A DNA stretch of 8,079 nt from a virus (taxonomy: Duplodnaviria; Heunggongvirae; Uroviricota; Caudoviricetes). The notes beneath the pieces are model-generated. The model worked only from the letters and a program-made list of their open reading frames with translations. It was not told the DNA's origin and searched no databases. Of the stretch, positions 3,001-5,380 are shown piece by piece (the first letter of the stretch is position 1; the number at the start of each line of letters is the position of its first letter). The stretch is from the IMG/VR virus record IMGVR_UViG_2657244943_000011. One strand, written 5' to 3'. The position numbers and the translations under genes were made by a program.

Positions 3001-3801
3001 ATGAAACTGCGAAAAACGCCCGTACAGGGGCAGGGCTTCGTTCGGCCTGAAAACCAGAATCTGCAAAATTTCGGCGAAATTATCCCGGTTATTTCCGGCG
3101 TTATTGGCGGGCGTGAAACCAATATTGTTAGCGGCAGAGCGTTGCATAAGGCGTTAGGTGTAGGTCGCGTTTTCCGTTCGTGGATCAAGGGGCGCATTGA
3201 AGAATACGGCTTCACGGAAGGCGTGGATTATGAGGTTGTTGAATATTTGAGCCGACCCGATCCGGTGAGCGCAAAATCTCGCCAGCAAACAGCTCTTGAG
3301 TACATCATTACCGTGAACATGGCGAAAGAACTGGCGATGGTCGAACGCACCGAACAGGGGCGCGCCGTTCGTCAGTACTTCATCAAATGCGAGGAAGAGC
3401 TACACAAGGTTGCGCCTGTACGTTCCGCAGCGTTACGCCGGGAACTGAAAGCCCGTATCACAGTTGCCAGCTACTTTAAGCCAATGTGTGCCGCGCTGGA
3501 GGACTACCGGGCTGAACTGGATAAAAACACTCTACAGCACCACTACACCACGGAAGCCAATATGCTGGCGCGTATCGTGCTGGGTGGCATGACTGCAAAA
3601 CAGTGGGCGCAGGTGAACGGCATCACAGGCGAACCACGCGACCACATGAGCACGTTGCAGCTTGAGCACCTTTCTTACCTTGAGCAGAGCAATATCACGC
3701 TGATTGAGTTAGGCCAGGACTACCACCAGCGGAAGGCTGAATTAATTCGTCTTTCGCAGCGTTGGTTAGCCCGTCGCATGGAGGAAAACAGCCATGTGTA
3801 A
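3001..3801 (+). CDS. phage antirepressor-like protein (AntA/AntB N-terminal domain type)
   Basis: 266-aa ORF, AGGAG 6 nt upstream of ATG 3001, TAA stop 3799-3801. Segment RALHKALGVGRVFRSWIKGRIEEYGFTEGVDYEV...ITVNMAKELAMVERTEQGRAVRQYFIKCEEEL resembles the AntA-type antirepressor N-terminal domain from memory; not verified by search. Confidence 0.6.
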   Translation: MKLRKTPVQGQGFVRPENQNLQNFGEIIPVISGVIGGRETNIVSGRALHKALGVGRVFRSWIKGRIEEYGFTEGVDYEVVEYLSRPDPVSAKSRQQTALEYIITVNMAKELAMVERTEQGRAVRQYFIKCEEELHKVAPVRSAALRRELKARITVASYFKPMCAALEDYRAELDKNTLQHHYTTEANMLARIVLGGMTAKQWAQVNGITGEPRDHMSTLQLEHLSYLEQSNITLIELGQDYHQRKAELIRLSQRWLARRMEENSHV

Positions 3802-4260
3802 CGCTCTGACCGTTACAAAAAGAGAAAGCGCCCCGTTGCCGGAGCGCCTTTGTGAACGAATAGCCTACTGCGCCATATTGCTTACTGTCTACGAGGCAGA
3901 TTATAGCGTTGTGGTCGCACAGAGTGAAGGCGCTGATCACCGTTACTACAGCACGCCAGAAATGCAGAATATTTTGCTGCAAAATGCCGTTGGCCACGCT
4001 GTCCGGAAAGCAAAAAATTTTGCTGGTGGCGCGACTGATGCGATTTTGTCAGGTCGCCAGGTGCTGATCAATCTGATGTCTGATTTCGTTCTGGATAAAA
4101 CAAAGGCGACCGCAGAGAGCCGCCAGTGGAAAAGCTACATACTTGAACGCATCACCAACAATGCCACATTTGCGGCTGGTGGGCAATGTGTCAGCTTTGC
4201 ACCAATGACTCTAGGTTTAACTGAGGGTCATTATGGTGAATATGCTGGCTTGCTGGTGGG
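3794..4260 (+). pseudogene. uncertain ORF / possible gene remnant; good start signals but no credible stop (frame runs on to 5380)
   Basis: ATG 3794 overlaps the upstream stop (ATGTGTAA) and has TGGAGGA 8 nt upstream, the same coupled-junction architecture as real genes downstream. The first ~140 codons look protein-like; beyond about 4200 the translation becomes Cys/Ser-rich and then runs antisense through the minus-strand gene at 4519-4824. The end coordinate is arbitrary. Confidence 0.2.
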
Positions 4261-4518
4261 CTATTCCTGCTCTTTAACATCGCCATGCCGCGATGTTTTC
4301 CAGGTATGCGACCCCATTTTTGTGCGCCTGTACTCTTTAAGGAATTTCTCAAGGATAAACGCACAGGGCGCGAATCTGTCTGACTCATGCTCGTACGCTA
4401 TCTTTCTGCGCTGTCTTTTCCGTGCCGGTGATGGTGTATTGGTTGATTCTTTGTTGGTCATGGCGCTGCCCTGTAAAACGATGCACCGTAGTTCCTCACA
4501 CCACGGCGCTGGTGATGG

Positions 4519-4824
4519 TTACTCCTGTTCTTTGGCCTTGCGCCGCTGGAGTTCTTCACGCGCGACGGTGACGAGTTGCCCGATCTCCTCGGCTGCTTTG
4601 ACACCGATTTTTTCCACCTGCGCCAGTGCATCGAGCGAAGAAACCAGGGGATTTTCTCCGCTTCCTTCTGCCTGGCGGCGGGCGATTTCACCGCGAACGG
4701 CTGTAATCACGAAAGCGGCTATTGTTTCCCCTTCCGTTTTCGAATTTTCCATTTCCTCGATTACATCATGGGGGAAGCGGATATTTTTCATTTGCGATCT
4801 GCTGTTGATGTTTCCTGTTGCCAT
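4519..4824 (-). CDS. putative ribbon-helix-helix (Arc/MetJ/CopG-like) DNA-binding regulator
   Basis: 101-aa minus-strand ORF with well-formed composition, unlike the plus-frame translation of the same DNA. N-terminal KNIRFPHDVIEEME followed by helical GETIAAFVITAVRGEIARRQA fits a beta-strand/helix/helix RHH pattern. Divergent from the small-gene operon across a palindrome-rich intergenic region. Start could be ATG 4824 or the internal ATG 4791; neither has a strong SD. Confidence 0.5.
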   Translation of the reverse strand: MATGNINSRSQMKNIRFPHDVIEEMENSKTEGETIAAFVITAVRGEIARRQAEGSGENPLVSSLDALAQVEKIGVKAAEEIGQLVTVAREELQRRKAKEQE

Positions 4825-5014
4825 CAGAATGTCCGGTTATTTTGAGGTGTGTACACATTACACCAAAAGGTGTGTTGATAAAACACTTGACACTGTAGCA
4901 CACTTAAATCTAATCTGTGTATACACTAATGATTGTGGTGTATATACAGCAACGCCCCGCAGTGGTGGCACACATGCAGGGCGTCTAACCAAACCGTTAA
5001 ACGAGGTAACGATT
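4825..5014. promoter_or_regulatory. divergent promoter/operator region with three perfect 10-bp palindromes
   Basis: TGTGTACACA (4848-4857), GTGTATACAC (4917-4926), TGTATATACA (4939-4948); additional GGTGT/ACACC half-sites; consensus -35 hexamer TTGACA at 4887-4892 and TTGATA at 4875-4880. AT-rich relative to flanks. Confidence 0.5.
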
Positions 5015-5380
5015 ATGGCTGGAACACAGCATACCCAAACTCACCCTAAATTTATATACACCTTCCTGGCGGTGCACCGTGATTGCATAGCTGACGGTAA
5101 AAACACTGTACACGTAGCCGCTGATACGCTGGTTGATGCCTGCGAGATGCTCAATGACATGGGCTATATCTCGGCAACATGGAAAGGGCGCGAAGAAAAC
5201 ACGCTGTTTATTCAGAAATGCGAGAACAATTTTATCTGGCGTTTTATCGCCCTGAGCACAGCACAACCGCGCGTAATTCACATCGAGGCCACCAGCGAAC
5301 AGGAAGCGCGTCAGCAATCTCCTGATGGCTGCGTGATGGTATTCGCTGCCCGTATTCGCCAGGAGGTGCACCATGCATAA
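5015..5380 (+). CDS. hypothetical protein (first gene of small-gene operon)
   Basis: ATG 5015 with GAGGT 7 nt upstream, TAA stop 5378-5380; 122 aa. In frame with the run-on ORF 3794-5380 but with its own initiation signals. Stop overlaps the next start. Confidence 0.6.
   Translation: MAGTQHTQTHPKFIYTFLAVHRDCIADGKNTVHVAADTLVDACEMLNDMGYISATWKGREENTLFIQKCENNFIWRFIALSTAQPRVIHIEATSEQEARQQSPDGCVMVFAARIRQEVHHA

Follow-up and report, generated by a model that had tools for sequence, protein, structure and literature searches.

In the immI region of phage P22, the Mnt and Arc repressors act at the divergent Pant/Pmnt promoters. We describe a comparable arrangement in an 8,079-nucleotide stretch of Caudoviricetes DNA (IMG/VR record IMGVR_UViG_2657244943_000011; hereafter the window, meaning the whole stretch). 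A leftward gene for a 101-amino-acid (aa) protein of the YlcI/YnfO family lies back to back with a rightward operon that begins with an Icd/Kil-like gene, and the control region between them, of about 190 bp, holds repeated sites that are candidate operators for the protein. The protein is likely, though not proven, to be of the ribbon-helix-helix (RHH; Arc/MetJ/CopG) type. Its N-terminal strand (NIRFPHDV) resembles those of Arc (NLRWPREV) and Mnt (NFRMPMEV). As in Mnt the RHH-like domain is followed by a C-terminal helical domain, and as in immI the regulator gene is divergent from its putative target operon, with the putative operators over the core promoters. Unlike P22, which has one operator of 17–21 bp, the window has about five sites at a spacing of 22–24 bp; it has no second Arc-like gene and no ant gene downstream, the cassette lies inside another open reading frame (ORF), and the protein similarity is marginal (hhalign probability 13%).

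The second system to compare is the immunity region of P4, where the promoter PLE lies inside eta, kil is nested as the end of the longer eta, and the CI RNA with its seqA and seqC elements and the terminator timm are found; eta is coupled to an alpA homologue, and its translation lets upstream transcripts escape termination (PMC10111431). The window island shares with P4 the series int, alpA-type gene, Bro-type gene, Kil/Icd-like gene and then primase, a promoter predicted inside a long ORF, and a short Kil/Icd-like gene that ends a long ORF starting at the stop of the upstream gene. Unlike P4, it has an opposite-strand gene for a protein repressor candidate, with putative DNA operators around the internal promoter, and it lacks the P4 genes sid, delta and psu. 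An Rfam search gave no match to a C4 or isrK (CI-type) RNA in the window up to E = 1, and found no P4/P1-type immunity RNA next to the related leader in phages.

Omega, CopG, ParG and TraM are RHH proteins on arrays of short repeats; the heptads of Omega are contiguous, whereas the window sites lie two helical turns apart, and no partition or transfer function is evident. The Stl/Rpr master repressors are helix-turn-helix proteins, unlike the RHH-like regulator of the window. Their setting is similar: in the Staphylococcus aureus pathogenicity islands (SaPIs) and other Gram-positive phage-inducible chromosomal islands (PICIs), the regulator gene is divergent from the replication operon with the control region between (PMC6092414). 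The island in the window is a Gram-negative PICI, an E. coli phage-satellite island. For this group, a 2018 account gave rightward transcription only, an "unclear" global repressor and AlpA as an activator (PMC6092414).

The site array and its divergent regulator

The regulator gene is as follows.

4519–4824, minus strand: candidate repressor, a 101-aa YlcI/YnfO-family protein with an RHH-like N-terminal domain (about residues 1–55) and a long C-terminal helix (59–100).

A preliminary description of the window, made from its letters and ORFs, had noted three perfect 10-bp palindromes beside this gene and a consensus TTGACA hexamer among them. All are present, the palindromes at 4848–4857 (TGTGTACACA), 4917–4926 (GTGTATACAC) and 4939–4948 (TGTATATACA), and the hexamer at 4887–4892. 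They do lie between the start of the 101-aa gene and the ATG at 5015 of the rightward operon, as described; the region is not simply intergenic, being inside an eta-like ORF (below). Dinucleotide-preserving shuffles of 4825–5014 had three or more perfect 10-bp palindromes in 46 of 20,000 cases. The whole window has eight such palindromes, about the number expected by chance, so what stands out is the cluster of three related ones. The shared core that had been proposed holds up as a common motif, GTGTRTAYACA: with up to one mismatch allowed it has 8 strand-wise matches in the window where 0.34 are expected, a number that none of 200 shuffles reached. These fall in the three palindromes and at 5051–5061 only, and in the 19-kb island of E. 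coli 55989 the matches are confined to the same region. All three palindromes are alternating purine-pyrimidine runs, which become palindromic more easily than random sequence does.

Palindromy itself turned out to be a trait of this specificity class and not of the family. In the nearest class to the window, L002 and L003 have no perfect palindrome and L013 has one; among the closest relatives, site positions are conserved and palindromy is not. The control region of the window differs from that of E. coli 55989 (L001) solely by G/A at 4919, inside site S4, and this change makes palindrome 2 an exact copy of palindrome 3 (TGTATATACA), keeping it perfect. A LexA box at palindrome 3 was rejected, since its left half, read from the sequence, does not fit CTGT.

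Related loci comprised 13 usable ones from other genera (Erwinia, Enterobacter, Xenorhabdus, Photorhabdus, Serratia, Pantoea, Lelliottia, Phytobacter and, by its record label, Martelella) and, within E. coli, 13 diverged ones; five more were added later. An unbiased search of 27 loci for the most-repeated 8-mer found, in most of them, copies about 40 and about 16–17 bp upstream and 6 and 28–29 bp downstream of a TTGAC anchor; L014, L016 and L019 have a fifth, class-specific copy 50–52 bp downstream of it. Eight of 14 representative loci have four to five copies, a number seen in only 2 of 840 shuffles. The corresponding places in the window, given without strand, are these.

S1, 4846–4857: GGTGTGTACACA, containing palindrome 1; about 40 bp upstream of the anchor in most scanned loci; covers the predicted leftward transcription start.
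S2, 4869–4880: GGTGTGTTGATA, degenerate; has GGTGTGT in common with S1 (at 4846 and 4869); about 17 bp upstream of the anchor is where other classes have a site.
S3, 4893–4905: CTGTAGCACACTT (reverse complement of AAGTGTGCTACAG), degenerate, in the promoter spacer; assigned by position and its GTGTG core; in other classes the site here is about 6 bp downstream of the TTGAC start.
S4, 4915–4926: CTGTGTATACAC, containing palindrome 2; 28–29 bp downstream of the anchor in other classes; covers the predicted rightward transcription start.
S5, 4937–4949: GGTGTATATACAG, containing palindrome 3; 22 bp past S4, in the transcribed leader as predicted.

S2 and S3 were assigned mainly by position, because the window holds only degenerate copies there. 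From these comparisons the window palindromes are best explained as sites 1, 4 and 5 of an array of about five. The multi-operator switch of the preliminary description, offered there as a possible immunity or induction control, gains support from position-fixed sites around conserved -35 and -10-like elements in related loci, with five sites instead of three, the two degenerate ones flanking TTGACA.

The sequence of the sites differs sharply between loci and follows regulator residues 11–17, while spacers, -35 element and leader stay similar. The classes, by predicted DNA-reading strand, are given below.

Strand QLTTVRV: site GTGTGTTTCA (E. coli, Xenorhabdus, Photorhabdus).
Strand QSLTARI: site GTGTAAGAC (E. 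coli, Enterobacter).
Strand KQISIRI: site TGTGATTCA (E. coli L018).
Strand QMTTIRV: site TGTATATCAC (E. coli L016 and L017).
Strand QQ(L/I)NARF: site GG(T/G)ATTCA (L027, L014).
Strand KKNIRF: site TGTGCGCACA (L028, an E. coli 042 island).
Strand KRIDARV: site GTGTCCGACA (L034).
Strand KKLEARV: site GTGGCTGACA (EcCIO42).
Strand QALKARV: site GTGGGCCACA (EcCICFT073).

Among 23 non-redundant loci, identity of the seven-residue strand correlates with site identity (Mantel r = 0.76, p ≤ 5e-5) more than with spacer identity (r = 0.48). Where strands are identical, sites are 94% and spacers 87% identical; where they differ, the values are 53% and 67%. The E. coli locus L019 and Xenorhabdus L005 illustrate this across genera, with 98% identical sites and 76% identical spacers. 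Between classes there is a mosaic boundary: the 3′ half of the regulator gene is mostly 80–100% identical, the RHH-coding part together with the control region about 20–70%. This boundary indicates that the DNA-reading head and the operators form one exchangeable cassette. All sites of a class change in concert, so a common reader is needed. AlpA, the Icd-like protein and the replicase vary within one site class and are excluded as readers on that ground. The RHH-like protein, which had been put forward as the candidate repressor, is favored in that role by the co-variation of sites with its strand and by its RHH-like N-terminal domain.

At the equivalent position in E. coli 2013C-3033 (L036, 2756–2935, minus strand) stands an unrelated RHH-looking protein of 60 aa, and the same leader hairpin is preceded by a perfect 10-bp inverted repeat, ATGTAATGTG ... 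CACATTACAT. The slot seems to be taken by different repressor cassettes.

Fold of the regulator

The 101-aa protein belongs to the YlcI/YnfO family by NCBIfam model NF041551, an N-terminal model of 42 residues (64.2 bits against a cut-off of 30, E 8e-18, residues 9–50), and YlcI/YnfO is also the RefSeq name of the identical protein. Open-access papers searched for YlcI, YnfO or DUF3950 held nothing relevant. Conserved features seen in the family alignment are NIRFPHDV, a G-E-S/T turn and, as the second helix, an amphipathic one; in the window protein the turn before helix 2 is G32-E33-T34, and E33 is invariant. Comparison with known RHH proteins gave faint signals. In hhalign, KNIRFPHDV falls on FNLRWPREV of a hand-entered Arc sequence, at an E of 0.002; Mnt gave a 13-residue match only; the Pfam RHH antitoxin family PSK_trans_fac gave sub-threshold matches only, to 21 of 30 members. 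A sequence search of solved structures with the regulator brought no convincing match.

AlphaFold models (mean confidence, pLDDT, 78–79) have helices at 19–28 and 35–54 and, in the full-length protein, the long helix at 59–100, and they are structurally similar to solved RHH proteins. The models are of monomers, in which residues 14–18 are extended and not scored as strand; an RHH sheet forms only in the dimer. If the protein aligns with Arc in this way, its DNA-facing residues would be 12, 14 and 16. An invariant Arg occupies position 16, and the class-to-class differences fall at 12 and 14. Short versions of the regulator (59–66 aa) that lack the C-terminal helix keep the same site spacing.

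Promoters, nested reading frame and proposed control

The array overlaps two predicted promoters, and the whole cassette lies within a long ORF.

4887–4892, plus strand: rightward -35 element TTGACA, with a conserved A-tract before it (4880–4883).
4911–4916, plus strand: predicted rightward -10-like element TAATCT, 18 bp past the -35, placing the start near 4922–4924.
4857–4862, minus strand: predicted -10-like element TGTAAT of the leftward regulator promoter; T(A/G)TAnT is found at the equivalent place in other loci.
3794–5380, plus strand: eta-like ORF of 528 aa, whose ATG overlaps the AntA/B stop and which ends as the Icd/Kil-like protein.
5015–5380, plus strand: Icd/Kil-like protein of 121 aa (NF033153, E 6e-23, residues 73–116), first gene of the rightward operon.

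A TTGAC-like element stands about 61 nt (60–68) from the regulator ATG in all 27 aligned loci, with TAAnnT 17–18 bp later. Among the 23 non-redundant loci the first element is conserved as T 23, T 23, G 22, A 20 and C 19, its A-tract in 22–23, and the second, at its fixed position, as T 21, A 17, A 21 and T 17.

Antisense to both the 66-aa gene and the regulator gene, the eta-like ORF passes through them and then crosses the entire control region. In 19 of 27 loci its last part, the Icd frame, is open for 600–1,600 nt upstream. Over the control region itself, roughly 190 nt, this frame is stop-free in 19 of 27 loci, the other two frames averaging about 5 and about 6 stops, and only 1–3% of shuffled control regions lack a stop in a given frame. 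Over the regulator gene alone, stop avoidance in the antisense frame was not significant (P of no stop, 0.18–0.47), so the open-frame signal comes from the control region. In the regulator family alignment tyrosine accounts for one of 3,040 residues, which would fit avoidance of antisense stops. As in P4, the upstream gene is coupled to a long ORF in whose end a short Kil/Icd-like gene is nested; the long ORF recurs in L034 and EcCICFT073, and 978 such long 'Icd-like' proteins have been reported by gene callers. Pasteurella phage Pmp7 (L029, OR544138.1) has a 224-aa ORF at 4435–5109 annotated 'transcriptional repressor', and the only match there to the window regulator is on the opposite strand of that ORF (37% identity over 53 residues); probably the genes are nested there too and were annotated as a single long one.

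From the sites and their conserved positions, from the way the sites co-vary with the strand, and from the RHH-like features found in this analysis, we infer binding, an oligomer, promoters and repression as follows. The 101-aa protein is probably an Arc/Mnt-type repressor that, from an array of about five sites, shuts the operon running from the Icd/Kil-like gene to primase and also regulates its own gene. Repressor dimers would sit on 11–12-bp sites 22–24 bp apart, centered near 4851, 4874, 4899, 4920 and 4942, an array spanning two back-to-back promoters. With S3 in the spacer and S4 on the start site, occupancy would shut off the Icd/Kil-like gene, the small genes, DUF4222 and primase, keeping the integrated island quiet; autoregulation would follow from S1 and S2, which bracket the -10 element of the regulator's predicted promoter. 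Cooperative binding is suggested by the spacing together with the C-terminal helix: the helix probably joins dimers on neighboring sites, two helical turns apart. The first 20–50 codons of the regulator and the operators would make up an exchangeable specificity cassette, analogous to a phage immunity region. With less certainty, and by analogy to P4, transcripts from the upstream alpA/antA operon may be translated through the cassette; such translated read-through might evade the repressor as well as Rho termination, and it would cross the repressor gene in the antisense direction.

Several findings weigh against this reading. Applied to the window alone, the 8-mer test gives two copies, and strong mutual likeness there is limited to S1, S4 and S5. 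Site orientation varies by class; most have + - + -, but L002, L003, L012 and L013, relatives of the window's class, have + + - -. The DNA coding for the strand lies within 60 bp of the operators, and linkage in one recombination block inflates the correlation; the loci, moreover, are not phylogenetically independent, so that the statistics overstate independence. The -10 elements are weak, TAATCT agreeing with the consensus at 3 of 6 positions, the leftward promoter has no good -35, and a consensus scan of the window called no promoter; both promoters therefore rest on positional conservation. In 8 of the 27 loci the Icd frame of the control region does contain stops.

Four other explanations were considered. 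The regulator might do no more than autoregulate its small operon with the 66-aa protein, in the manner of an RHH antitoxin, leaving the replication operon alone. We think this unlikely: the partner gene is absent from L019 and L024, no toxin family was matched, and in most classes S3 and S4 lie in the rightward spacer and on the start site, so binding would affect that promoter anyway.

S4 and S5 might instead be arms of a 5′ RNA hairpin in the rightward transcript and not DNA operators. The arms 4915–4926 and 4938–4949 are 92% complementary, and the same place holds an unrelated inverted repeat in L005, L020 and L004. The start predicted for the transcript (about 4923), however, falls inside the 5′ arm, and the L019 copies are direct, not inverted. 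A hairpin from palindromes 2 and 3 was rejected as not general across loci and because the folding energy of the window leader is not unusual (z = -0.77), and we give the idea little probability.

The repeats might also be iterons, an origin or a partition site read by the replicase or a partition protein. Their spacing of 22–23 bp and length of 10–12 bp resemble plasmid iterons, and P4-type elements bind primase to repeated sites. Yet L016 and L017 have identical sites but unlike replicases, a RepA-type helicase in the first and a primase-family protein in the second; the primase proteins of class A loci are not those of class B loci; the island has no annotated ParA-type gene; and what the sites do track is the RHH strand. 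Since the replicase does not track the sites, an iteron-type origin was rejected, and this family of explanations appears very improbable.

Least probable of all is that the palindromes are a by-product, without binding function, of alternating purine-pyrimidine sequence or of coding constraint from the long ORF: all three are such runs within a frame kept open, but their excess is significant against dinucleotide-preserving shuffles, and the sites of other classes are not alternating runs, yet occupy the same positions and change in concert, as needs a common reader.

The repressor reading has a broader form, possible in our view though short of probable: that a large subfamily of Gram-negative PICIs, EcCICFT073 among them, has its missing master repressor in the YlcI/YnfO protein, with the whole repressor cassette inside a translated eta-like ORF and AlpA-driven read-through on induction. 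The control DNA would then have two functions, as operator and promoter and as a stop-free 'translated spacer'; read-through would shield transcripts from Rho and circumvent the repressor, whose gene it would silence through convergent transcription. If true, this would be a protein-based counterpart of P4 RNA immunity with exchangeable specificity heads.

Two reference islands have the same elements. EcCIO42 (L037; E. coli 042, NC_017626.1, about 1840514–1841085) has a 59-aa YlcI/YnfO gene divergent from the Icd-like gene, and three GTGGCTGACA sites at the standard positions. EcCICFT073 (L039; E. coli CFT073, NC_004431.1, about 1380242–1381052) has a 59-aa YlcI/YnfO gene with a 57-aa partner and GTGGGCCACAC sites, and its Icd frame is open for 1,101 nt, back to just past alpA. 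The 2018 description of Gram-negative PICIs as unidirectional, with no divergent repressor gene, does not hold for the window, where conserved leftward genes occupy 4519–4824 and 4261–4461. Because the reference islands also carry leftward genes in current RefSeq, it is the published feature that needs revising, not PICI membership. A recent survey lists the YlcI/YnfO protein merely as an accessory gene (PMC13612085), and we found no earlier description of an RHH-type repressor in PICIs in the open-access literature. RHH repressors with repeated operators are of a familiar kind, and so are nested ORFs like that of P4; their combination, and its presence in model islands, appears undescribed.

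Gram-negative PICIs are common and mobilize genes for virulence and defence. If they share a conserved divergent repressor of exchangeable specificity, this would explain how the replication operon is kept silent, and it predicts immunity-like groups of islands. The nested layout would also offer a clean example from nature of regulatory DNA that has to remain translatable.

Island setting, leader and neighboring features

The window matches E. coli 55989, O104:H4 and other strains, in which the island occurs at 99.9–100% identity beside tRNA-Thr, downstream of proA; about one-fifth of complete E. coli genomes match at least part of the region. Gene order is tRNA-Thr, int, a hypothetical gene, AlpA and an AntA/B-type protein; then the leftward pair of the 66-aa protein and the regulator; and then rightward Icd-like, small genes, DUF4222, DUF927 primase, ProQ/FinO and PerC. 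Such a layout is that of a Gram-negative PICI (PMC13612085; PMC10111431), and the island has the int, alpA and primase/replication module of the group, which was defined in 2018 as islands of 10–17 kb at a specific attachment site. Other features near the cassette are listed here.

4261–4461, minus strand: 66-aa basic protein (phrog_21027, E 8e-33), downstream of the regulator; a frequent, not constant, partner.
4483–4509, minus strand: terminator-like hairpin directly past the regulator stop codon, from the consensus scan only.
4952–4984, plus strand: HP2, a conserved two-tier leader hairpin downstream of S5, followed by conserved UCUAACCA.
4995–5011, plus strand: HP3, a small hairpin with the Shine-Dalgarno GAGG (5003–5006) in its loop; flanking CCA pairs with the start-codon AUGG.

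Proteins of 57–58 aa related to the 66-aa protein adjoin other regulator types in L034, L036 and CFT073, sharing a motif around F-x-LEKFLKEYR.

The inverted repeat HP2 has compensatory changes in 3 of the 8 pairs of its consensus structure, and the same fold is found in 20 of 20 leaders. It is also found upstream of Icd-like or ash-type genes in many loci without this regulator. The HP3 stem appears in most of the 20 leaders when each is folded separately, with varying sequence (CGUUA/UAACG against UGUAA/UUACA), and may present or sequester the ribosome-binding site. Neither hairpin matched an Rfam family.

For the Icd-like gene, the start at 5015 has a ribosome-binding site and ATG that are conserved in related loci, and L017 is annotated with this start too; for the copy in E. 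coli 55989 (99.9% identical), PGAP/RefSeq places the start at the equivalent of window 5159 (73 aa). An 8-bp palindrome, GGTGCACC, lies near both ends of this gene (5070–5079 and 5365–5372), its first copy lying within a longer palindrome of 10 bp, CGGTGCACCG. The Rfam int-alpA RNA motif (RF02996) occurs at 1616–1683 on the plus strand of the window, between int and the next gene (44.2 bits; threshold 35.8), and again in Pasteurella phage Pmp7 (L029, 7069–7135).

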